Origin: Dehalococcoidia bacterium
GTDB taxonomy: Bacteria; Chloroflexota; Dehalococcoidia; Lucifugimonadales; UBA1123
Assembly: GCA_965116415.1 (NCBI GenBank)
Contig: OZ220693.1
Location: 556,753 to 620,752, forward strand
Direction of reading: 5' to 3'
DNA: 64,000 bases
Shown one piece after another: positions 10,000 through 26,629 of the stretch. Numbering within the stretch: the first letter of the stretch is position 1; every line of letters starts with the position of its first letter. The notes below the pieces were generated by a model that saw nothing but the letters and a program-made list of their open reading frames with translations, ran no database searches and had not been told where the DNA came from. The translations under genes and the position numbers were made by a program.

Positions 10000-10087
10000 G
10001 CTTTCTACTTTACTCCCTAGCACCGAGGCATCGGCTGCCGCCCTCTACTTACGCGAAGTCGGCAATCACGGGTCCTCCGAGTGTCAC

Positions 10088-11335
10088 TCACTCCATGCGG
10101 CTGAACACCACGCAGGCGTTCTGGCCACCGAATCCGAAGCTGTTTGACAGCACATGTGCTACGTCAGCCTTCCTTGCCTCATTGGGGACGTAGTCGAGGT
10201 CGCAGCCCGGGTCGGGGTGTTGGTAGTTGATCGTGGGGTGAATCAGGCCGTTCTGGATCGACTTCACGCAGGCGACGCCCTCAAGGGCCCCTGCCCCTCC
10301 GAGGGCATGCCCGATCATTGACTTCGTCGAGCTGATCGGGACCCTGTAGGCATCGTCACCGAAGGCCAGCTTGATTGCCATCGTCTCCACCTGGTCGTTG
10401 ATCGGAGTGGATGTACCATGGGCATTTATGTAGCTGATGTCTCCGGGCTCAAGGTCAGCATCCTCGATTGCCCAGCGGATAGCCCTTGCGGCGCCGGTTC
10501 CGTCTTCGTCCGGCTGAACGGCGTGGAAGGCATCTGAAGAGACTCCGTAGCCAGTAACCTCTGCCAGAATCTCAGCGCCCCGGCTTTCTGCGTGCTCCAG
10601 CGTCTCCATGACCAGGACCGCAGCCCCCTCCGAGGGCACAAATCCGTCCCTCTTGGCATCGAAGGGCCTGCTGGCTTTCTCCGGTTCTTCGTTCTGCCTG
10701 CTGAGAGCCTTGATGACGTTGAACCCGCCAAGACCAAGCTGGCTTATTCCTGCCTCACAGCCTCCCCCAAGGATCACGTCAGCAACCCCGCGCTGGAGCG
10801 CGACTGCTGCCTCCCCGATTGCCTGTGTCCCCGCTGCACATGCCGTAATGACGGTTGACGTATATCCCTTGAGTCCATAGATTCGGCTCACATTGGCCGC
10901 AGCCATGTTCGGCAGTATCATCGGAATGAAGAATGGCGACATTCGCATCCCGCCCCTGCGGACGAGAATGCGGGCATTGTCCTCGGTGGTCGGGAAGCCA
11001 CCGTTGCCATTGCCCATGACAACCCCGATCCGGTCCACGTTCTCCTTCGACAGGTTGAGTCCTGCATCCTCGATTCCGGCGGCGGCGGCGGCAACCGCCA
11101 TCTGCGAGAAGCGGGCCATCCTTCGGTGTTCACGACGATCGATGTAGTCGCCCGGATCAAAGCCGGTGACTTCGCCCGAGATTCTGGACGGAAACTCTGA
11201 GGGATCGCAGAGCGTCATCGGCCCGATTCCGGACCTTCCGTTCACGAGATGGTCCCAGTATTCATCTATCGATTCGCCCAAGGGCGTCATCGCTCCCATG
11301 CCGGTGATCACCACGCGAGTTGTGGCGTTCTTCAT
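10088..11335 (-). CDS. fabF: Beta-ketoacyl-ACP synthase II
   Basis: 415 aa. Active-site context 'TACAAG', the 'HGTSTP' and 'GHALGGAG' His motifs, and 'NSFGFGGQNA' at the C-terminus. Confidence 0.95.
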   Translation of the reverse strand: MKNATTRVVITGMGAMTPLGESIDEYWDHLVNGRSGIGPMTLCDPSEFPSRISGEVTGFDPGDYIDRREHRRMARFSQMAVAAAAAGIEDAGLNLSKENVDRIGVVMGNGNGGFPTTEDNARILVRRGGMRMSPFFIPMILPNMAAANVSRIYGLKGYTSTVITACAAGTQAIGEAAVALQRGVADVILGGGCEAGISQLGLGGFNVIKALSRQNEEPEKASRPFDAKRDGFVPSEGAAVLVMETLEHAESRGAEILAEVTGYGVSSDAFHAVQPDEDGTGAARAIRWAIEDADLEPGDISYINAHGTSTPINDQVETMAIKLAFGDDAYRVPISSTKSMIGHALGGAGALEGVACVKSIQNGLIHPTINYQHPDPGCDLDYVPNEARKADVAHVLSNSFGFGGQNACVVFSRME

Positions 11336-11367
11336 GAGGCTACTCTCCTGTTCTATCCGACTGCGCT

Positions 11368-12792
11368 CTAGAGGTCTTCTACTCGTGGCCTGTGTACCGG
11401 CCCTCTCAAGTTTTCATAGATTTCGGGTTCAATGCCTTCGAGTTCTTCGATGGCCTCGGCAGCGAGGGCCAGTGAACCCGAGCAGAGCACCAGGTCATTT
11501 CGTCCGGCCAGCGCTACTGCGTGTCGCAGCCCTTCCGACACTGTCTCAAACTCTCCGGCCAGGTCAAGGCCGAATCTCCTGACCACCTCAGCAGTGACAC
11601 CTGCGTGGGCCGAGCGTGGATGCCTGGACTGCACCGCGACCACTTCCGGAGCTAGCTTGGCGAATGCTTCCAGCATTCCCTCTGCGCTGTGTCCGCCCAG
11701 AGACCCGAAAACTAACACCACTCGACTGGGGTCAATCAGCTGCCTGATTGTGTCGACAAGCCTGCCAACTGAGTACGGATTGTGCGCTCCGTCTACGGTT
11801 ATCGTCTTTCCCTCGCGTTCGTAGACCTGGAACCTCGCTGGCCAGCAGACTTCCCGAACGCCTTGTTCAATGGAATCGTCCGATACGTTGAAGCCCCGTT
11901 CTCGGAGCAACTCAACTGCAGCTACCGCAGTTGCCACGTTCTCAATCTGGTAGTCACCAACCAGAGGTGTCCACAGGCTATATGTGCGCCCATCGCCTAC
12001 TAGCTCAATTGACTGCCCGCTGATGTCTGCGGTCACACTTCGACTATCAAAGTGCTCAGAGGCTTTCAGAATCGGAGAGCCCCTGTCATTCGCAATCTGG
12101 TCAAAGACCTGCATAGCCTCACAGGACCACTGGGGGCCAATCACACAGGGCACACCTGGCTTGATAATCCCTGCCTTCTCGGTTGCGATCTTGGCAATCG
12201 TGTCACCAAGCGTGGCCGCGTGGTCGATGCTAATCGACGTTATTGCCGAAACCTCGGGGGTTACGATGTTGGTGGAGTCCAGCCGCCCTCCAAGTCCAAC
12301 CTCAAGCACCTGGAAGTCGGCGCCGATGTTGCGGAAGTGGACCATTCCCAGAACAGTCATCATCTCGAAGAAGGTAACGCCACCGTATGGTCCGGTTGCC
12401 CCTACATTCTCCACTGCGGGCCAGATCTGAGCGACCAACGCCGCGAATTCCTCACGGGAGATTGGGGCGAGACCCACGCGGACTCTCTCGCAAACAGTAT
12501 GCAGGTGCGGCGACGTGAACAGACCGACCGTATACCCTGCACTTGAAAGTATTGACGTTATGAGAGCGGAGGTGCTGCCCTTCCCTTTGGTTCCAGCGAC
12601 ATGAACTGCAGGCACAGCCCGGTGTACATGGTCCAGGCGTTCGGCGAGCAGACCTACCCTCTCCAGGTGAAAGCCTGAGTGCCCTGGGGAGTGAGTAGAC
12701 CGCTCGAAGTCGGCGAGTCCCATCGCCATATCGACGGCCTGATTGAAGTCAAGTGTCCCTGGAGTAGCTGATGGCATGGAATCGCGATTCAA
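11368..12792 (-). CDS. folC: Bifunctional folylpolyglutamate synthase / dihydrofolate synthase
   Basis: 'VAGTKGKGST' P-loop and 'FTSPHL', with Mur-ligase-type middle and C-terminal domains. Confidence 0.9.
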   Translation of the reverse strand: MNRDSMPSATPGTLDFNQAVDMAMGLADFERSTHSPGHSGFHLERVGLLAERLDHVHRAVPAVHVAGTKGKGSTSALITSILSSAGYTVGLFTSPHLHTVCERVRVGLAPISREEFAALVAQIWPAVENVGATGPYGGVTFFEMMTVLGMVHFRNIGADFQVLEVGLGGRLDSTNIVTPEVSAITSISIDHAATLGDTIAKIATEKAGIIKPGVPCVIGPQWSCEAMQVFDQIANDRGSPILKASEHFDSRSVTADISGQSIELVGDGRTYSLWTPLVGDYQIENVATAVAAVELLRERGFNVSDDSIEQGVREVCWPARFQVYEREGKTITVDGAHNPYSVGRLVDTIRQLIDPSRVVLVFGSLGGHSAEGMLEAFAKLAPEVVAVQSRHPRSAHAGVTAEVVRRFGLDLAGEFETVSEGLRHAVALAGRNDLVLCSGSLALAAEAIEELEGIEPEIYENLRGPVHRPRVEDL

Positions 12793-17513: not shown

Positions 17514-18752
17514 CTACTGACCGGCGCCCAGCTGATTCGCTGTCTTGGGGAGTCGTGTCGCCCACAGTATCAGTGCGCCGAGTATCACAAGCGCGCCACC
17601 GAATAGGAACGTGGCTGAGTTCCCCCACTGGTCCGCGACCCAGCCGGCTGCCCACGGAGAGAACGCTCCGATGAAGCTTGCGCCGTAGATCAGGGACACC
17701 ACCGTCGACTGGGCCTGGCCCTGCGCGACGTCCATTGCTCCGGCTATGTAGATCGTGTGTAGCGAGTACAGGAAGGCTCCCATGACCAGGACTACAAGCA
17801 CGAGCTGTGGCCCGGGTTCTGCAAACCTCAGACACATGATCAGAAGTCCAAGCGCAAGCGTGCAGGGTACGAGGACGACCTTGCGTCCGAACCTGTCCGA
17901 CAGGAACCCCATAATAGGCTGCGCGACAATGCCGGTTACCTGGGCGCCAGACATGAACAGCCCGATTACGACCTTTTCATAGTCGAGGTCTTCCAGCAGG
18001 TAAACGGGCAGGAACCCCATTACCGCTGACTGCCCGGAGCTTCGAAGTGCCGTCACGAAGACAAGGGAAAGCATCGCCCTTCGCTTCACCAGCGTCACCA
18101 GTGAAGTCAGGTATTGCCCCAGGGACTCGGCATCCGCCGCCGCGGCAGGAATGCTCCGCATCATCAGGTACACGGCGACGGCGATTATCAGCGCCGGGAG
18201 CACGCTCATGTGGAGCACGTCCCGCCATTCGAAGGCTACCAGGTACGTCCCGCTGATCAGACCGCCGGTCAACACCGGGCCTACAACTTCGCCAACGCTT
18301 CCTCCGGTGCCGTGCAGCGAGATTGCGAATCCGCGCCTGTCAGGGAACTTCCGGGACAGCGACGCAATGGCCGGTGGGTGATATAGCGACGGTCCTATTC
18401 CGACGAGCAGCATCACCGCGAACAGGAACCAGTAGCTCGGCGCACTGCCCATCAGGTAGTAGGAGACACCCATGATGCCCAGCGAGAGCATAAGCATCAG
18501 GCCCGACCTGTTTGCGAAACGGTCGCCGAGGTAACCGGCGACCATCGTCGTCGTACCGCTGGTGACCCTCTGCGACGTCGCGAGCAGTCCGAACTGGGTG
18601 CCGCTGAGGCCGAGATCGTCCTTGATGACGGCCAGGATGACGGACTGAAGTCCCGAGTTATAAATGTGCTTTACGGTGTGCCCAAGAACGACCGTGAACG
18701 CAAGCTGATTACGGCCCCTCTTGATTTCCTCAGTTACCTGAATTGTTGCCAT
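17514..18752 (-). CDS. MFS transporter
   Basis: 412 aa, about 12 predicted hydrophobic helices, and MFS loop motifs 'GYLGDRFANR' and 'LSDRFGRK'. Confidence 0.85.
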   Translation of the reverse strand: MATIQVTEEIKRGRNQLAFTVVLGHTVKHIYNSGLQSVILAVIKDDLGLSGTQFGLLATSQRVTSGTTTMVAGYLGDRFANRSGLMLMLSLGIMGVSYYLMGSAPSYWFLFAVMLLVGIGPSLYHPPAIASLSRKFPDRRGFAISLHGTGGSVGEVVGPVLTGGLISGTYLVAFEWRDVLHMSVLPALIIAVAVYLMMRSIPAAAADAESLGQYLTSLVTLVKRRAMLSLVFVTALRSSGQSAVMGFLPVYLLEDLDYEKVVIGLFMSGAQVTGIVAQPIMGFLSDRFGRKVVLVPCTLALGLLIMCLRFAEPGPQLVLVVLVMGAFLYSLHTIYIAGAMDVAQGQAQSTVVSLIYGASFIGAFSPWAAGWVADQWGNSATFLFGGALVILGALILWATRLPKTANQLGAGQ

Positions 18753-18779: not shown

Positions 18780-19967
18780 CTACTGATGCCGCCTGCCTTC
18801 GTATGGATGCTCAGCGCCCAGCAGGTCGCCTTCAGCGAACCGCGTTAACCTGAACTGGCTGACAGGATGATCACTCGACTCCCCGCGCATCACAAGCTCA
18901 GCCACCATGCGACCCACTACAGGCGACAGTTTGAACCCGTGTCCACTGAATCCGACCGCCCAGTATAGACCTTCCACAGTCTGAGATCGGTCAAGTATCG
19001 GATTGCCGTCCGGTGTCATGTCGTATAGAGAGCCGTAGCCGCCACGGCAGATCGCTGCTTCAAATTCGGGGAATCTCAGCTTGGCGCGGTCCCAGAAGCG
19101 TGTGATTACATCGTGGTCTGCGTTAAGACCGAACGCGTCCGGGTTGGCTACTTCCGCCAGGTCTTCCAGGGCCTCACCGCCTATAACCGTATCGTGGTCT
19201 CCATATACTCGGAAATATGCACCTGTTGAGTAGTCGATTATGTTTGTGTTTAGGCTCTCAAGTGGAGGAGGCCTTCTCATGTGCACCATCTGGACACGAA
19301 TGGGAGTAACCGGCAGGGACTCCCCGACTGCAGCGCCCAGATAGTGACACCACGGCCCTACAGCGGCGACCACCGTTGAAGTCTCAATTGTCCCCGAGCT
19401 TGTCTCCACACCCGCAATCCTTCCTCCAGAGACGACCAAACCTGACACTGGAGTCTGCGTGTGTATCTCGGCTCCGTAATCCCTGGCCCGCTCGGCGTAG
19501 GCGTAGGTCGTAGTGACGGGGTCAGCGTGACCCGCATCCGGCTCATAGGTGCCCATTGTTATCTCTTCAAGGTTCGCCTGGGGTACCATCCCGGCGACCT
19601 CTGTCGGTGTCAGCGTCTCTATGTTGACACCAAGGTCTCTGTTCATCTCAACGTTTGCGCGGGCAGCAGCCTCGTCCCGTTCTGTGAACATCAGGATTCT
19701 GCCGCCTTGTACGAACCGAGGATCACCTCCAATCGCGTCCCCGAAGTTCTGGAAGATCTCCCTTGACTCGGTCGCCATCCTCACCAGCGTGGGATGCAGG
19801 TAGTGCTCACGCACCATCGCACCGGACCGGCCCGTTGCGCCACCAGCTAGGTGACCCTTCTCCACCAGCACCACCCTGCCTGCGCCCATCCGAGCCAGGT
19901 GCATGGCGATGCTTGTCCCGTTAACTCCACCACCGATTACCACAACGTCCGCAGTCGCACTAGTCAT
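18780..19967 (-). CDS. FAD-dependent oxidoreductase (DAO / sarcosine-oxidase-beta-like)
   Basis: N-terminal 'DVVVIGGGVNGTSIA' dinucleotide fold. The length and 'GFSGHGFK' are typical of the DAO family. Confidence 0.85.
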   Translation of the reverse strand: MTSATADVVVIGGGVNGTSIAMHLARMGAGRVVLVEKGHLAGGATGRSGAMVREHYLHPTLVRMATESREIFQNFGDAIGGDPRFVQGGRILMFTERDEAAARANVEMNRDLGVNIETLTPTEVAGMVPQANLEEITMGTYEPDAGHADPVTTTYAYAERARDYGAEIHTQTPVSGLVVSGGRIAGVETSSGTIETSTVVAAVGPWCHYLGAAVGESLPVTPIRVQMVHMRRPPPLESLNTNIIDYSTGAYFRVYGDHDTVIGGEALEDLAEVANPDAFGLNADHDVITRFWDRAKLRFPEFEAAICRGGYGSLYDMTPDGNPILDRSQTVEGLYWAVGFSGHGFKLSPVVGRMVAELVMRGESSDHPVSQFRLTRFAEGDLLGAEHPYEGRRHQ

Positions 19968-20088: not shown

Positions 20089-20814
20089 ATGACAACCTCG
20101 AATCCCATCTCCGACGAAACTCTCGAAGTTCTCAGGAACATCCCCACCCAGACCCTTATCGACGCCCTCTGGGTTAAGAACTGGCCTCAGAGCTACGTTG
20201 AGGGGGCGCGGCCTCTCCAACTAGGACAGAAGATGGCCGGGCGTGCGGTTACCCTGCGCTTTGTGCCCCATCGTCCCGACTTGGCCGCTGACAAGCCCAG
20301 GGCAGACCAGTCGGCCGAGTACGTGGCAATCGAGCAGTGCGGCCCCGGGGAGGTGCTCGTGGTCGACGCAATGCGATGGACGTATAGCTCCATAGGCGGC
20401 GACATCAAGTTCTTCAGGATGATGCAGCTTGGCGCGGGCGGGCTGGTTACCGATGGCGCTGTCCGGGACAGTGTTGCCCTCCGAGAGTACGGCTTCCCCG
20501 TGTTCAGCGCGTCGACGACGGCGAAGCAGGGACCAGCGGAGTTCTGGCCCTGGCAGGTCAACGACGCCATCCAGTGCGGTGGAGTCCTCGTCAGGCCGGG
20601 CGATGCGGTCGTGGGAGACGACGACGGCGTTGTAGTCGTACCCAGGTCAGAGGTGGACGAAGTCATTCAAATCGCCCACCAGCGTGAGGAGGTCGAGGAG
20701 ATCGTCAAGGCCCAACTGGAAGTCGAGCGCTGCTCCCCCGGCAAGTACTACCCCTTCAACGACGAGACCTGGAAGCTCTACGAGGCCAAGACTGGCAAGA
20801 AGCGTCCGGGGTAA
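20089..20814 (+). CDS. RraA-family protein (HMG/CHA aldolase / oxaloacetate decarboxylase-like)
   Basis: 'GEVLVVDA...GGDIKFFRMMQLGAGGLVTDGAVRD' is the RraA-like fold signature. Confidence 0.75.
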   Translation: MTTSNPISDETLEVLRNIPTQTLIDALWVKNWPQSYVEGARPLQLGQKMAGRAVTLRFVPHRPDLAADKPRADQSAEYVAIEQCGPGEVLVVDAMRWTYSSIGGDIKFFRMMQLGAGGLVTDGAVRDSVALREYGFPVFSASTTAKQGPAEFWPWQVNDAIQCGGVLVRPGDAVVGDDDGVVVVPRSEVDEVIQIAHQREEVEEIVKAQLEVERCSPGKYYPFNDETWKLYEAKTGKKRPG

Positions 20815-20818
20815 CTCT

Positions 20819-21625
20819 CTAGTCCATCCGCGACCCACCGGTGACATTGATCGCCTGCCCGGTGATGTTCAGCGACAGGTCGGAGGCCAGGAACACTGCC
20901 AGGTGCGCGATGTCCTCCGGCGTCTGCTCGCGGCCAAGCGGCATCCTGGCCTGGATGGAACGGTCGAAGTGCTCCCTTGGAGTAATGCCTGACTGGCCAT
21001 CGTCAAGGTTGATGTTTCGTACCGCAATCCGCTCCCACATGTCCGTCCAGAGAGACCCCGGGCAGATCGCGTTTACGTTGATGTTGAATGGCGCGAGCCC
21101 CAGAGCATAGGCCTGTGTGAGGCTGATTACGCTGGCCTTGGAGGCATTGTACGCTGGATTACCTGGACCGCCCTGTCGCCCCGCAACAGATGCGATATTG
21201 ACGATCTTCCCGTAGTTTCGCGTTTTCATGTACTCGGAGATTGCATCTGAAGCCTTGGCGACCCCTTTCACGTTCACGGCGTAGATCTGGTCCCAGTCAT
21301 CCTCGATCGGCCGGTCGCGGTTCTCCCATCCGGCGGCGCCGATAATCCCTGCATTGTTGACAAGTATGTCGATCTGTTCGAACAGATCGACCACTTCGCT
21401 CGCCAGGCGGTCCAGCGACTCCTGCTGAGTTACATCAACCTGAAGTGCCCCGAACTCGGTGTTCGGGTGGGCCTGACTCAGCTCCGACGCAGTCTGTCTT
21501 ACGTTTTCGATGTTCAGGTCGCAGATCACCACCGTTGCCCCGTACAACGCCATCTTGTCCGCAATGGCGCGTCCTATTCCACGGGCCGAACCGGTCACGA
21601 TTGCTACTTTGTCGTTGAGATCCAT
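20819..21625 (-). CDS. SDR family oxidoreductase
   Basis: 'TGSARGIGRA' cofactor motif, 'NNAG', and the catalytic 'YNASKAS'. Confidence 0.9.
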   Translation of the reverse strand: MDLNDKVAIVTGSARGIGRAIADKMALYGATVVICDLNIENVRQTASELSQAHPNTEFGALQVDVTQQESLDRLASEVVDLFEQIDILVNNAGIIGAAGWENRDRPIEDDWDQIYAVNVKGVAKASDAISEYMKTRNYGKIVNIASVAGRQGGPGNPAYNASKASVISLTQAYALGLAPFNINVNAICPGSLWTDMWERIAVRNINLDDGQSGITPREHFDRSIQARMPLGREQTPEDIAHLAVFLASDLSLNITGQAINVTGGSRMD

Positions 21626-21760
21626 TTACCCACCTCGCATTTTCACTCCGAGCCGCCAGTGGGTGCGATTGTAGCACCGGGCAAAGGCTCACGCCCGCAG
21701 GGGTTCACAGCTCCACCGTGATAGAATACGCGCGCTCAAGTAAGCCCTGAGGAGTGTCTC

Positions 21761-21946
21761 GTGTCAGAGTTATCGATCGATGATGTTCGCAAGTTAGCGG
21801 AGACTATGGGACTGGAGTTGGACGAGTCCAGGGCTCGGACAATAGCGTCCCGCCTTTCCGGCATCATGGAGGTGCTGGAGGATATTCCCGACGAACTGCT
21901 CGATTCTGTCGAGCCGGCCCACCGGTTCGAAGTTGGCCGGGAGTAG
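21761..21946 (+). CDS. GatC-like small protein (AtzG-like putative amidase partner)
   Basis: 61 aa. The GTG start is preceded by GAGGAG. 'LSIDDVRKLAETMGLELDESRARTIASRLSGIMEVLEDI...VEP' follows the GatC pattern. The stop lies 4 nt before the amidase ATG. Confidence 0.65.
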   Translation: MSELSIDDVRKLAETMGLELDESRARTIASRLSGIMEVLEDIPDELLDSVEPAHRFEVGRE

Positions 21947-21950
21947 AGAC

Positions 21951-23381
21951 ATGGCCAGTAATGACCTTCACCTAATGACCATCGCCGAACTCGGCAGGCT
22001 GATACAGACCCGGCAGCTCTCTCCTGTCGAACTGACACGTTCCTTCCTGCAACGAATCGAACGTCTCAATCCCACTCTCGGCGCCTACATAACCGTCATG
22101 TCGGAAACTGCCAGTGCCGAGGCGGCCCAGGCAGAAGCCGAGATCAGCATCGGCAATTACCGGGGGCCGATGCACGGAATCCCGGTCGCCATCAAGGACA
22201 TCATCTACACGGAAGGCGTTCTGACCAGCGCAGGCTCGCGGGTGCTGGCCGACCACTTTCCGGAGTACGACTCGACGATTGTCGAGCGGCTTCGAAATTC
22301 GGGAGCGGTCCTCCTGGGCAAGTTGAACCTGAGTGAGTTCGCGGTCGGCGGCACCATCGACCACCCGTATGGCACTCCGCGCAACCCGTGGAACCTGGAC
22401 CGGTCTGCCGGAGGTTCCAGCAGCGGATCGGGAGTCGCCGTTGCTGGCGGTCTGTGTGCAGGCGCACTGGGGTCGGACACAGGCGGATCGATAAGGGGGC
22501 CAAGCGCGTTCTGCGGCATCGTTGGGCTTCGCCCGACCTACGGTCGCGTGACTCGGCATGGTGTTGTACCGATGAGTTGGAGCCTCGACACAGTCGGTCC
22601 AATGACCAGGACCGTCGAAGACTGCGCGATCATGCTCCAGGCAATTGCCGGCCAGGATGAGCGCGATACGTCATCGAGCTCCGAGCCGGTGCCAGACTAC
22701 GTTGGGGCCCTGTCTCGAAGGACGGACCCAGTAAAGGTTGCCATTCCGCCGGACGCCCTCGAATACGAAGGCTTGGACACCGAGGTCCGGGCGGGCGTTA
22801 TTTCAGCCGTGGACAACCTCGCGGAGCTGGGCGCTGACATCGACGAAGTCCGCCTTCCAGTTTCGGCCCAAAGTGGCGCCGTCTTTCTGGCAACCGCGGA
22901 CGTCGACGCGGCAACCTTCCATCTCGATTGGCTGAAGACCCGTGGGGATCTGTACGACTGGAGCACGCGCACGCGCCTTGAATCGGCGGTCCTGACCCCG
23001 GCCACCACCTACATCAGGGCCCAGAGGGCGAGGACACTCATCAGGAACGAAATGATGTCCGCCCTTGAAGACCACGATGTGATCGTGCTGCCCGCCAGTC
23101 CGACACTAGCCCCGTCAATCGCGCAGTCCACTGGCTCGCCAGGAGGTTACTACCAGGGCCGGCTCGATCTGGGAAGGCGGCAGTACACCAGCCCAGCCGC
23201 TCTTGCAGGGCTTCCAGCAATATCCGTGCCCTGCGGGCTCTCAGACTCGGGTCTGCCAATCGGGGTCCAGATAATCGGACGCCCATTCGAAGAAGACGTC
23301 GTACTGAGTGTCGCCTACAGGTACGAGCAGGCCACCGGCTGGAGCGACCGTCGCGCCCCCGAACCTGAGGTCCCTGCATAA
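21951..23381 (+). CDS. Amidase-signature family amidase (not canonical GatA)
   Basis: 'GIPVAIKD' (catalytic Lys) and 'GGSSSGSGVAVAGG..GSDTGGSIRGPS' AS signature. It lacks the GatA-specific central and C-terminal motifs. ATG 21951 is preceded by GGGAG. Confidence 0.9.
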   Translation: MASNDLHLMTIAELGRLIQTRQLSPVELTRSFLQRIERLNPTLGAYITVMSETASAEAAQAEAEISIGNYRGPMHGIPVAIKDIIYTEGVLTSAGSRVLADHFPEYDSTIVERLRNSGAVLLGKLNLSEFAVGGTIDHPYGTPRNPWNLDRSAGGSSSGSGVAVAGGLCAGALGSDTGGSIRGPSAFCGIVGLRPTYGRVTRHGVVPMSWSLDTVGPMTRTVEDCAIMLQAIAGQDERDTSSSSEPVPDYVGALSRRTDPVKVAIPPDALEYEGLDTEVRAGVISAVDNLAELGADIDEVRLPVSAQSGAVFLATADVDAATFHLDWLKTRGDLYDWSTRTRLESAVLTPATTYIRAQRARTLIRNEMMSALEDHDVIVLPASPTLAPSIAQSTGSPGGYYQGRLDLGRRQYTSPAALAGLPAISVPCGLSDSGLPIGVQIIGRPFEEDVVLSVAYRYEQATGWSDRRAPEPEVPA

Positions 23382-23420
23382 CCCCCTCTCCCTCAGGGAG
23401 AGGGTTGGGGTGAGGGTGAA
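23382..23420 (+). repeat. Intergenic palindrome + G-tract element, copy 1
   Basis: The sequence is CCCCCTCTCCCTCAGGGAGAGGGTTGGGGTGAGGGTGAA, immediately after the amidase stop. CCCTCTCCCT pairs with AGGGAGAGGG. Near-identical copies are at 44069 and 51348. Confidence 0.85.
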
Positions 23421-23557: not shown

Positions 23558-23632
23558 CGGGGTGTGGCGCAGCGGTAGCGCGCCTGTTTTGGGAACAGGA
23601 GGTCGGCGGTTCGATCCCGCCCACCCCGACCA
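23558..23632 (+). tRNA. tRNA-Pro (anticodon UGG), CCA encoded
   Basis: Hand-folded cloverleaf: acceptor CGGGGTG/CACCCCG, D arm GCGC-AGCGGTA-GCGC, anticodon arm CCTGT-TTTGGGA-ACAGG, variable loop AGGTC, and T arm GGCGG-TTCGATC-CCGCC, followed by A-CCA. Confidence 0.93.
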
Positions 23633-23662: not shown

Positions 23663-24349
23663 ATGCAGGACCGTCCCGACCAAACTGGTACTCCCCGTTC
23701 AGGGTCAGCCGTCCGTGGGCTGACACAGACAGAAGCCACCCAGATCCAGGTCAACGACTGGTGGAAGCGCCCATTCGACCTCCTCGTGCTGATCGCCGTA
23801 CACGTTGCCTTGGCGCCAATCTGGGCAGTTTTGTGGGTATCGATTCCCCTGGCGATCTGGCTGCACGACCGTGGTCCCGTTTTCTACACCCAGGAACGCC
23901 TGGGTAAGAACAGACGAGTCTTCAGGGTGTACAAGTTCAGATCGATGATCCCGGACGCTGAACGACACACGGGAGCAGTCTGGGCCGAGGAAGACGATCC
24001 CAGGATCACCCCAATCGGCGCATTCCTCCGCAGTCGAGCCCTCGACGAGTTGCCGCAGGTGATCAACATGTGGAAGGGCGACATCAGTCTGGTAGGTCCC
24101 AGGGCCGAACGACCGGAGCTGTCCGAGGAGTTCGAGTCCAGCTATCCTGGATTCGCATGGCGCCTCACGGTAAGGCCCGGGATGACCGGCCTCGCCCAAA
24201 TCTACGGCAGGTACTCCACCCATCCCCGCAATAAGCTGCGATACGACATGCTTTACATCCGGCGGATGTCCCCGTGGCTTGACGTCAGGCTACTGGTGTC
24301 GTCAGTCCTCCTGACCCTTCGCGGCCGGTGGCAAGGCGAAAAACGCTAG
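23663..24349 (+). CDS. Polyprenyl-phosphate sugar-phosphate transferase (bacterial sugar transferase, WbaP/EpsL C-terminal type)
   Basis: 'KRPFDLL', 'PVFYTQERLGKN...FRVYKFRSM', 'DPRITPIGAFLR...LDELPQ' and 'GDISLVGPRAERPE' motifs. The exact start is uncertain. Confidence 0.88.
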   Translation: MQDRPDQTGTPRSGSAVRGLTQTEATQIQVNDWWKRPFDLLVLIAVHVALAPIWAVLWVSIPLAIWLHDRGPVFYTQERLGKNRRVFRVYKFRSMIPDAERHTGAVWAEEDDPRITPIGAFLRSRALDELPQVINMWKGDISLVGPRAERPELSEEFESSYPGFAWRLTVRPGMTGLAQIYGRYSTHPRNKLRYDMLYIRRMSPWLDVRLLVSSVLLTLRGRWQGEKR

Positions 24350-24475
24350 GCAGCCAGAAGTCCGGCTGAGAGCGGCGAATGGCGATACTCCACTCCGGCG
24401 AGGGTCGGAATCCAGAGTGGCAGCCATCACTCCCACCCCTAGTTGAACTAGACAGCGTTCATAAGCCGAAAACAC

Positions 24476-26482
24476 TTACTGCCGGCTTTCCAGTTCCTCC
24501 TGCTGCTCTGAGATCCGGATGATCTCCCGCGTCCGGGGAGCCAGCACCGTCGCCTCATCGATGTGCTCGCGTGCTACTGCAAGGTACTCGGGGTTGCGCG
24601 TAGAGGCCACCTGGTAGAACTGCGCGGTCAGCGCCCTGATCCTCCAATTCTGAGGTTCGTCGTCAAGTCCGGCCTCCGCCGCAGTTCCCACAGACTCCAC
24701 TGCCAGCGCGAACTCCTCGTCCGACATCTCCTGGGCGCCCTCGGTTGCCTGTGAAATCAGGATGATCCTCGGGTAGTTGCCAAGGCCCGGGAACTCTGAA
24801 ACTGACCTGGTAAGCACCTCTTCCTTCTGCTCCCATGTACCCTGTCCAATCGCGCCCTGGACCACGGTCATCGCCGAAGAGAAAGGCATGAACGTGTAGA
24901 ACAGGAGTAGCCCAGTCAGGACAGACACGATCAGGACCACAACCGCAACACCGATCGAGTTCCTGTGGAAACCCGCGACGGCAGCCAGTCCCAGTCGCTG
25001 GCCGAGACCTTCAGGGATCAGTTTCGTCCTGCGCTCGGGTGGCTCATCAGTCAGTTCCTGAACTCCTAGCTCCCGCTCCTCTGAGATCAGAAATGCAACC
25101 AGGAGAGCAAACAGCAAGGTCGTCGTAGTAGTGTCGAATAGGAACAGGTTCTGTACGAAGTACGCTGCCGCCGTCGCCCCGACTATAGCTATGAATACCT
25201 GGTGCCATCCACTTCTCCGACGGAACGAAGCCAGCAGAACAGCCACCATCCCCAGCCAGATGAGCAGATACGTGGTCAGGCCAAGTACGCCCTTGGTTGT
25301 AAGCTCTTCGAACACTTTGCTGTGCGCCTGATCGAATCGCTCTCGAATGCCGGAGTCGACATCGAAGTACCTTCCCCACGCGATCAGGAAGTTCTCGGGC
25401 CCCCATCCCAACACCGGTCGGTCCTGGAACGCCTCGAGTCCAGCCTGTACGGCAACCAGCCGACCACGAGAGCTATTGTCGTCCAGGCCAATGGATGCTA
25501 AGCGCCTGAGCGTAGTACTTGACTCCTGCAGCGGGTCAAGCACAGTCGTGGTCCTCATCACGAGTACCAGGGTGATACCCATTACTGCGGCGACGATCAC
25601 ACCGAGTGCAGCCCACCTTATGACCCTCATATTCCCCCAGATGAGATACGCGACGCCAAACACGACCGCGCCTGCAGCCATGCCCACAATGGCTCCCCGC
25701 GTCCCAGTAAGCCAGAGCGCCCAGAGGTTGATGACAACCGCTAAGACCCAGAGGACCCGAAGCCACGTCGTTAGGTCCAGTGACCAACCGGCCTGCTCTT
25801 CCACCCTTCGTTGCCGGCGTCTGGTTGCGCGCCTTCTCACCTCCACACTTGGCTCGATGTCCGGCTTGAGGAACGAGTAGACAATCAGACCCACGCCGAT
25901 CATGGCGTTCACCATCGTGTAGGCGCCAACGTAGGTGGCGTTACCCAAGGTGGATTCGATTCTCTGCGAAGACCCTAGGATGTCCATGCTGTACACATCG
26001 AAGTGGTGCGCCAGTCCAAGGCCAGAGACGATCGCCCCAATCACGAGGTTGACCGTGAACGGCACTTGCCAGTCTTTGATAGATCTGAAGACTGAGCCTG
26101 CCATCATCGCGAAAACAAACCAGTGGGCAAGATCGTATATGCCCTGCATCCGCTCGTACGTCGACCAGAAGCTCCTCGTGAAACTGACTCCAGTGAGCCC
26201 CGCAATCAGTGAGACGACCAGCCATGCGCCGAATGCAATCAGAATCCACGAACGCGATGGGCGGTAGCCCGAGAAGTACAGGACCAGTATCAGCCACAAA
26301 GCAAACGTGATCTCGATGATGACTCGTGCGTATATCGCCTTCCCAACTACGTAGGGAAAGTACGTCGATGTGGTCACGACCAGCGGCACGAAAAGGACCG
26401 CCATCAGCCCAAGTCGCACTGCCCAGAGGAGCAGTCTCTCGATGTCTGAGGCGCTAATGGTGCTGGTCTGCTGTTGTGTCAT
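24476..26482 (-). CDS. O-antigen ligase/polymerase-like (Wzy_C) polytopic membrane protein with soluble C-terminal helical-repeat domain
   Basis: Many TM helices. 'LTGTRGAIVGM' and 'QAHSKVFEELTTKGVLGL' resemble the Wzy_C core. ATG 26482 (MTQQQ) is preferred over the track start 26539. Confidence 0.7.
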   Translation of the reverse strand: MTQQQTSTISASDIERLLLWAVRLGLMAVLFVPLVVTTSTYFPYVVGKAIYARVIIEITFALWLILVLYFSGYRPSRSWILIAFGAWLVVSLIAGLTGVSFTRSFWSTYERMQGIYDLAHWFVFAMMAGSVFRSIKDWQVPFTVNLVIGAIVSGLGLAHHFDVYSMDILGSSQRIESTLGNATYVGAYTMVNAMIGVGLIVYSFLKPDIEPSVEVRRRATRRRQRRVEEQAGWSLDLTTWLRVLWVLAVVINLWALWLTGTRGAIVGMAAGAVVFGVAYLIWGNMRVIRWAALGVIVAAVMGITLVLVMRTTTVLDPLQESSTTLRRLASIGLDDNSSRGRLVAVQAGLEAFQDRPVLGWGPENFLIAWGRYFDVDSGIRERFDQAHSKVFEELTTKGVLGLTTYLLIWLGMVAVLLASFRRRSGWHQVFIAIVGATAAAYFVQNLFLFDTTTTTLLFALLVAFLISEERELGVQELTDEPPERRTKLIPEGLGQRLGLAAVAGFHRNSIGVAVVVLIVSVLTGLLLFYTFMPFSSAMTVVQGAIGQGTWEQKEEVLTRSVSEFPGLGNYPRIILISQATEGAQEMSDEEFALAVESVGTAAEAGLDDEPQNWRIRALTAQFYQVASTRNPEYLAVAREHIDEATVLAPRTREIIRISEQQEELESRQ

Positions 26483-26629
26483 ATGGTCATGAACCTGGAA
26501 GCGAATGGCTGCGGCGATTATATGAACGCCCCGAATCATTGGTCAACGAGCAAGGCTCATTGACACTTGCAACTCGGTTGACTCAAGGTCAGAATACTCC
26601 CAGACTTGGCTTTGGGGGATGCTCAGTAA

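Follow-up and report, generated by a model that had tools for sequence, protein, structure and literature searches.

What kind of enzyme is encoded where a very short open reading frame (ORF) runs almost directly into an amidase gene, and does such a pair belong to the tRNA-dependent amidotransferase GatCAB or to something else? We addressed this question for a locus in a 64,000-nucleotide (nt) stretch of a Dehalococcoidia bacterium (GenBank assembly GCA_965116415.1, contig OZ220693.1, positions 556,753 to 620,752 of the forward strand), which is referred to below as the window and numbered from its first letter. The two genes under study are an ORF of 61 amino acids (aa) and, directly 3' of it, an amidase-signature gene of 476 aa. 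An original prediction, made from the letters alone, had described them as a GatC-like subunit and a GatA-like but non-canonical amidase, analogous to AtzG-AtzE. Our analysis supports this core reading, and we consider it probable that the pair forms a two-subunit, non-canonical amidase.

The small ORF encodes MSELSIDDVRKLAETMGLELDESRARTIASRLSGIMEVLEDIPDELLDSVEPAHRFEVGRE and ends with a TAG codon at 21944-21946, leaving 4 nt before the amidase ATG at 21951. Its GTG start, its GAGGAG ribosome-binding site (RBS) and the 4-nt spacing had all been predicted correctly to the base (Table 1). The GGGAG that serves as the RBS of the amidase lies within the final codons of the small ORF; together with the short spacing this is the layout expected for translational coupling, and the placement suggests that amidase translation is indeed coupled. 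A perfect GC-rich hairpin begins 3 nt past the amidase stop. The transcription unit may end there, although the hairpin has no T-run; a promoter and terminator scan called nothing here, this hairpin included.

That the small ORF is a genuine gene, kept by purifying selection, is indicated by its ratio of nonsynonymous to synonymous substitution (dN/dS) of about 0.1, its conserved length and sequence, the intact copies 5' of orthologous amidases and the in-frame fusions described below. The dN/dS values range from 0.08 to 0.15 against close relatives; the median across 106 pairs is 0.16. A search of 5.8 billion proteins returned 43 close homologues with 59-100% identity, all of them from Dehalococcoidia-type assemblies and nearly all exactly 61 aa long. 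When 1.84 billion cluster representatives were searched with a profile, 44 representatives of 54-87 aa were obtained, besides one 1,960-aa repetitive protein, with no GatC of canonical length among the 44, and a later profile search of a large database extended the family to 943 members. With the family alignment as input, AlphaFold2 predicted a confident fold (mean predicted local distance difference test score, pLDDT, of 85) in which three helices (residues 6-15, 22-39 and 44-47) lead up to a VEP motif and a brief, less-ordered tail. The expectation that annotation pipelines would easily miss such an ORF did not hold in general, since protein databases do contain it, either unnamed or as 'hypothetical protein'. 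Apart from 'hypothetical', public records of the family once carry the name 'ribosomal protein L12E/L44/L45/RPP1/RPP2' and once 'GatC', and the amidase orthologues are often misnamed 'GatA' by NCBI or JGI (annotation drift cases P0074, P0079, P0080, P0133, P0136, P0142, P0143, P0211 and P0236).

The pairing of the two genes is strict. An alignment of amidase orthologues was scanned against one genome per GTDB species and identified 304 relatives; the best 80 of them were examined, and all 80 belong to Dehalococcoidia, SAR202 or Chloroflexota metagenome-assembled genomes (MAGs). Orthologous loci were defined in these species-representative genomes by an amidase 60-92% identical to that of the window, and small ORFs were detected with a hidden Markov model of the family on the six-frame ORFs of each locus. 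In every one of the 65 orthologous loci an intact small ORF lies on the same strand directly 5' of the amidase, so that conservation of the small ORF beside orthologous amidases, on which the original prediction had been staked in advance, was complete. Most junctions show a gap of 3-4 nt or an overlap of 4 or 8 nt, and wider gaps of 120-210 nt occur in four loci. The small ORF also precedes the amidase in every other locus examined, these having been reached via the protein database. Pairing is kept in L008 and L009 although all other neighbours differ, and no further neighbour is universally conserved in the orthologous loci; the pair is thus the sole universal unit at these loci.

In one clade, the homologue of the small protein and the amidase are fused in frame (proteins P0149, P0161 and P0163; loci L004 and L049). 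The fusion proteins are 556-560 aa long, and a Pro/Ala-rich linker of about 35 residues separates the two parts. The AlphaFold2 prediction for P0161 shows the same three helices in its N-terminal domain (pLDDT 83-93), which rests on three sequences in the alignment used (A5), and a linker (residues 55-90) that remains below 50. An earlier alignment of fusions, amidases and small proteins (A4) had misplaced the small proteins in the amidase region and was replaced by A5. Values below 50 were also observed at residues 173-187, 216-228 and 265-302 of the model. These segments hold the amidase-signature core, with the GGSS and GSDTGGS loops included, and conservation in the alignment is highest there; the probable cause of the low values is that the alignment is shallow and of low diversity. 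Gene fusion is classical evidence of joint action, although the binding site of the small domain cannot be proved from fusion alone. Strict pairing and natural fusion provide indirect support for a putative obligate complex of the two proteins.

The small protein is, as judged from sequence profiles, a homologue of GatC, although by curated cut-offs it is a member of neither the GatC nor the AtzG-like family. Taken alone, it matches the gatC model TIGR00135 with an E-value of 0.0028 and 17.9 bits against a cut-off of 47.1, and it has no match to PF02686 (GatC) or PF13318 (AtzG-like) at E<=1. A profile of the close homologues (A1) gave a GatC signal of E 0.08 against the PDB. Because the single-sequence signal was weak, the broader 44-member profile (A2) was needed, and it matched GatC of Aquifex (3h0l_C, 4.6e-5), S. 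aureus (2df4_C, 1.1e-4) and P. aeruginosa (4wj3_C, 3e-3). In each case one colinear alignment joins the small protein, over its full length, to GatC residues 1-54 and ends at the common VEP motif. In contrast to the three GatCs, AtzG (6c62) was not matched by the family profile at E<=10. Among 18,950 models, TIGR00135 is the family most commonly matched by the members (30 of 44); three members match PF02686, and six weakly match PF13318 (best 1.6e-4). The GatC-like pattern noted earlier in the 61-aa product is thus beyond chance, on the strength of the profile matches to three GatC chains and the 30 matches to TIGR00135.

In the structural comparison that had been proposed for this product, made by Foldseek between the predicted model and 350,542 PDB chains, GatC and AtzG took the top four ranks (GatC 9a62_B, AtzG 6c62_C, GatC 3kfu_G and 3kfu_J), and further GatC chains appeared at ranks 8, 9 and 13, but none of these matches is individually significant. 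Profile, predicted helices (6-15 and 22-39) and Foldseek agree that the N-terminal two-helix and VEP segment of GatC is present. The C-terminal half of GatC beyond residue ~54 is missing, the small protein having 61 aa in comparison with about 95 aa in GatC.

The amidase matches the Pfam family Amidase (PF01425) end to end with an E-value of 2e-122. The Ser-cisSer-Lys triad is common to all amidase-signature enzymes, and its presence here, as read in the original prediction, was verified by alignment: K82, the cis-Ser S156 and the nucleophile S180 correspond to K79, S154 and S178 of S. aureus GatA and are invariant in 13 orthologues. The best curated families are gatA (TIGR00132), with 362.6 bits in two stretches and a cut-off of 481.1 (~120 bits short), followed by the two AtzE models (351.6 bits for a cut-off of 461, NF006631; 338 bits for 425.75, TIGR02715) and a generic amidase family, all below their cut-offs, as was the allophanate hydrolase model. 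The closest solved relatives of the amidase are five GatA chains with 321-235 bits, next to which comes AtzE with 219 bits; the model of the fusion resembles GatA and AtzE structures about equally, with target-normalised template modelling scores of 0.80-0.86. The amidase is thus a homologue of GatA.

Whether the amidase lacks GatA-specific motifs, as had been claimed, can be answered only in part. The claim stands as far as the score below the gatA cut-off and the deletion of the GatA segment SSNLARYDGVRYG are concerned. The picture at the substrate site is ambiguous. Glutamine is bound in S. aureus GatA by Tyr309, Arg358 and Asp425 (bioRxiv 10.1101/733030). The counterpart of Tyr309 is an invariant F312. 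MAFFT aligns Arg358 with an invariant R342 (motif TRTRLES), where phmmer places it in a gap, and Asp425 is aligned with R404, two residues away from an invariant D406 located in an Arg-rich insertion of 6-7 residues (GGYYQGRLDLGRRQY). In this ambiguous alignment, F312, R342 and D406 may correspond to the glutamine-binding residues, and the absence of the GatA substrate residues is therefore not assertable. A first reading from phmmer, according to which counterparts of Arg358 and Asp425 are absent, was withdrawn, since the MAFFT family alignment and the helices of the predicted model disagree with it. Our guess for the substrate, from these residues, would be an alpha-amino-acid amide or another carboxylate-bearing amide.

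In the mechanism that we propose, this heteromeric amidase would descend from the GatC-GatA part of a tRNA-dependent amidotransferase. The 476-aa subunit would be the catalyst and would free ammonia from a carboxamide or ureido group by the Ser-cisSer-Lys mechanism. The 61-aa subunit would be non-catalytic, retaining the N-terminal helix pair and the VEP motif by which GatC packs on GatA; since the GatB-binding C-terminal half is lost, its only role is most likely that of a clamp for the folding and stability of the amidase, comparable to AtzG with AtzE. Co-transcription and probable translational coupling of the two genes would provide equal amounts of both subunits. Several observations weigh against this proposal. 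A designed coiled coil scored like GatC in the 44-member profile search, so that helical bias contributes to the GatC match. The GatC-like Foldseek matches have E-values of 0.13-1.7, and that to AtzG (6c62_C) has 0.68. A glutaminase-type activity is thinkable from F312, R342 and D406. Finally, the gene neighbourhood of the window is kept in only ~40% of the orthologous loci, which leaves the inference of a pathway weak.

The rival explanations were weighed against the same evidence. If the pair were simply the organism's canonical, though divergent, GatC-GatA, producing Gln-tRNA or Asn-tRNA with a gatB elsewhere, one would expect gatA to be both the top curated family and the closest solved relative of the amidase, as it is, and the frequent naming of orthologues as GatA would fit as well. 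Adjacent gatC and gatA with a distant gatB do occur in bacteria, and the possible counterparts of the glutamine-binding Arg and Asp point in the same direction. We nevertheless regard this explanation as highly improbable, since both proteins fall far under the equivalog cut-offs, the small protein lacks the GatB-binding half, and the GatA-specific segment is deleted. Moreover, the family occurs only in a part of one class (among the best 80 of 304 relatives, Dehalococcoidia/SAR202), related paralogues exist with two in one genome (L074 and L082), and the gene sits among catabolic and transport genes. In agreement with the earlier statement that no gatB is adjacent, the window ORFs that were scanned contained neither a GatB domain nor another amidase or GatC-like ORF. 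Canonical GatA and GatC were not found in 1.7 Mb of related loci with an Aquifex GatA sequence rebuilt from a PDB alignment and with the motif EGFG.EV..R; these loci represent <1% of each genome, and this search is hence uninformative. A variant of the GatCA ancestry, to which we assign a faint chance, is that a GatB-independent remnant still binds an alpha-amino-acid amide such as Gln or Asn, with the invariant F312, R342 and D406 as possible counterparts of Tyr309, Arg358 and Asp425 of GatA, and passes ammonia or the product to a new partner. The candidate for this partner would be an RraA-like protein, whose gene shows translational coupling to the fused gene of L004. If true, this would represent a new module for donating or channelling ammonia in a setting other than tRNA metabolism.

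If the pair truly belonged to the AtzE-AtzG family and acted on the same or a very similar substrate (1-carboxybiuret or a related ureido acid), this would account for the shared architecture with a small gene directly 5', for AtzE scores that nearly equal the gatA score, for AtzG being the second-best structural match of the small protein, and for the six family members with weak matches to PF13318. However, both AtzE cut-offs are missed, the small protein of the window does not match PF13318 at E<=1, and the family profile recovers three GatCs but not AtzG. No atzH-, atzD- or atzF-like gene was present among the neighbours scanned. Since the AtzE models and the AtzG-like Pfam family failed and atzH is missing, the pair is placed outside the AtzE-AtzG family, and membership appears very unlikely. 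The description 'AtzG/AtzE-like' is thus apt for the architecture, while the sequences are closer to GatC and GatA and by curated cut-offs fall into none of these families. The least probable reading of all makes the small ORF a leader or upstream ORF that regulates translation of the amidase, with a peptide that has no structural role. Its very short length, its tight coupling to the amidase start and the amidase RBS inside it would suit a leader, but strong purifying selection at the amino-acid level, the confident predicted fold, the homology to GatC and its persistence as the N-terminal domain of natural fusions all speak against it.

The two-subunit amidase favoured here can be compared with several known systems. 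To our knowledge, AtzE-AtzG is the only GatCA-derived two-subunit amidase that has been characterised. The 1-carboxybiuret amidohydrolase AtzE-AtzG of Pseudomonas sp. ADP (6C62) likewise has an amidase-signature catalytic subunit of GatA ancestry, a gene for a GatC-derived, non-catalytic subunit of ~60-70 aa directly 5' (a role that the small protein would share), no GatB partner, and a setting among genes for nitrogenous-compound catabolism. AtzG is described as a non-catalytic protein that forms an obligate heterotetramer together with AtzE; in its absence AtzE is insoluble, and the pair is regarded as derived from GatCA (PMC6219798). Among Proteobacteria, atzG-atzE-atzH clusters are frequent and are associated with the catabolism of nitrogen compounds (PMC6219798). 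In contrast, the window pair represents a separate lineage that stays below the AtzE cut-offs, does not match PF13318 and is nearer to GatC and GatA in sequence. It is not accompanied by atzH (DUF3225/NTF2) but by a hairpin, tRNA-Pro and a sugar transferase, and its family occurs in Chloroflexota (Dehalococcoidia/SAR202) instead of Proteobacteria and includes a single-chain fused form. On this comparison, the pair appears to be a new lineage of a known enzyme kind, the AtzE-AtzG type, in a new phylum and with a natural fused form.

The GatC-GatA part of GatCAB (2DF4, 3H0L, 4WJ3) provides the best sequence and structure match of both proteins and shares with the window pair the triad, the gene order and the two-helix and VEP N-terminal segment. 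The two conserved GatC helices form a hydrophobic bundle with GatA, which needs GatC or GatF to fold and is unstable otherwise, whereas the C-terminal loop and beta-strand of GatC cross the GatA-GatB interface and pair with GatB (PMC4027206). Unlike GatC, the small subunit of the window ends after ~GatC residue 54, without this loop and strand. The amidase differs from GatA by the missing GatA-specific segment and by a score ~120 bits under the equivalog cut-off, and the family is clade-restricted rather than universal, with no gatB nearby. A further parallel is found in yeast mitochondrial GatF (4N0H/4N0I), a lineage-specific variant or replacement of GatC that acts in trans as a scaffold for a GatA-type amidase (PMC4027206). 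GatF, however, bridges GatA to GatB and has an added N-terminal domain, whereas the window protein is shortened. The amidase of Rhodococcus sp. N771 (3A1K, 508 residues; PRK07235 type), a single-chain, homodimeric enzyme, gave a weak partial match to the model of the small protein (Foldseek rank 10, probability 0.51, E = 2.0). One member of the small family also weakly matches PRK07235, and amidases of this type may carry a fused GatC-like helical element.

The surrounding genes of the window are given in Table 1. In addition to these, a gene of the M24 peptidase family is located 5' of the pair, and the hairpin and tRNA-Pro(TGG) on the 3' side are followed by cell-envelope genes and a GMC oxidoreductase. 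Full flanks were available for 52 orthologous loci; of these, 20 have the RraA-like gene, 20 the DAO gene, 17 the SDR gene and 12 the MFS gene. For instance, SDR genes are also near the pair in L001-L003 and L005-L007, MFS genes in L001 and L005-L007, and DAO genes in L001-L004. This recurrent set extends to the diverged fusion clade, where the stop of the RraA-like gene overlaps the start of the fused gene in L004, and to SAR202 contigs. Genes encountered beside the pair in other clades encode RNase II, ComF-like, luciferase-like and arylsulfotransferase-like proteins. For the part of the family that has the recurrent set, the neighbours MFS, DAO-type FAD (flavin adenine dinucleotide) oxidase, SDR and RraA-like protein would point to the breakdown of an amino-acid amide or of a small organic acid that contains nitrogen. 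With low confidence, one may draw a pathway in which a small nitrogenous acid is taken up, an amide is hydrolysed, an amine or amino acid is oxidised, and a 2-oxo acid undergoes aldol cleavage or decarboxylation.

Table 1. Features at and around the small ORF-amidase pair (window coordinates)
Feature	Position	Strand	Remarks
MFS transporter, candidate substrate importer	17514..18752	-	PF07690
DAO-family FAD oxidoreductase, candidate pathway partner	18780..19967	-	PF01266, E 3e-71
RraA-like protein (aldolase / oxaloacetate-decarboxylase fold), candidate pathway partner	20089..20814	+	PF03737, E 9e-34
SDR-family oxidoreductase, candidate pathway partner	20819..21625	-	Pfam adh_short; divergent
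Shine-Dalgarno-like GAGGAG	21749..21754	+	6 nt 5' of small-ORF GTG; sequence reading
Small ORF, 61 aa	21761..21946	+	GTG start; ORF read from sequence
GGGAG, RBS for amidase	21939..21943	+	within final small-ORF codons, 7 nt 5' of ATG
Amidase-signature gene, 476 aa, GatA-like	21951..23381	+	ATG start; PF01425 match
Perfect 9-bp GC-rich hairpin CCCTCTCCC-TCA-GGGAGAGGG	23384..23404	+	3 nt past amidase stop
tRNA-Pro(TGG)	23558-23632	+	same strand as amidase; 3' of hairpin

The envelope genes between the amidase and the GMC oxidoreductase (23663-26539) encode a sugar transferase (Bac_transf) and a 687-aa membrane protein resembling Wzy_C/O-antigen ligase. Loci L002 and L003 do not have them at this position and carry the GMC oxidoreductase directly 3' of the amidase; the envelope genes look like an insertion beside the tRNA-Pro gene.

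If the proposed assignment is correct, the family would constitute a second, independent lineage of GatCA-derived two-subunit amidases, abundant in marine and sponge-associated Dehalococcoidia/SAR202. With ~940 homologues of the small subunit, strict pairing and natural fusion, a vestigial GatC serving as a clamp for a GatA-like amidase would appear to be a recurring evolutionary solution. The assignment would correct a widespread 'GatA' misannotation in Dehalococcoidia/SAR202 genomes and would flag an unassigned step of nitrogen release in bacteria that are known to break down recalcitrant organic matter. For production of soluble enzyme, co-expression with the 61-aa protein, or use of a natural fusion, is advisable.

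Related families were observed in passing. A group of paralogous amidases, 46-51% identical to the window amidase and below the gatA cut-off, occurs in the same class (L072, L074, L077-L086, L088 and L089, with the amidase at ~10001-11410 in each), and no small ORF of the family was found within 10 kb of them. Their upstream genes are VOC/glyoxalase-like or amidohydrolase-like, and the two copies in a single MAG mentioned above belong to this group. A second uniform GatC-like subfamily of 60-63 aa, with the pattern MADLTKEEV..GHAVGLEI.DPELTEVTYSLNALLEALD.INPPGLE.VEPLPI, was detected in Dehalococcoidia and Candidatus Tectomicrobia (L092:5001-5192, L090:1407-1589 and L094:5001-5183; proteins P0231, P0236, P0249 and P0270). 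Its gene lies 121 nt 5' of an amidase of the paralogous group in L092 and 3' of amidase fragments in L090, and there is no amidase within 5 kb in L094 and L095; the protein could be an unlinked small subunit or have another role. One amidase of this tier, with 47% identity, is preceded by a 61-aa ORF (MALSEEARVRELAELVGITISEEELSEVTNRF...) at L087:9814-9999. This ORF resembles GatC more than that of the window does, with a direct tblastn match to Aquifex GatC at E 2.6e-4, and may be an evolutionary intermediate.

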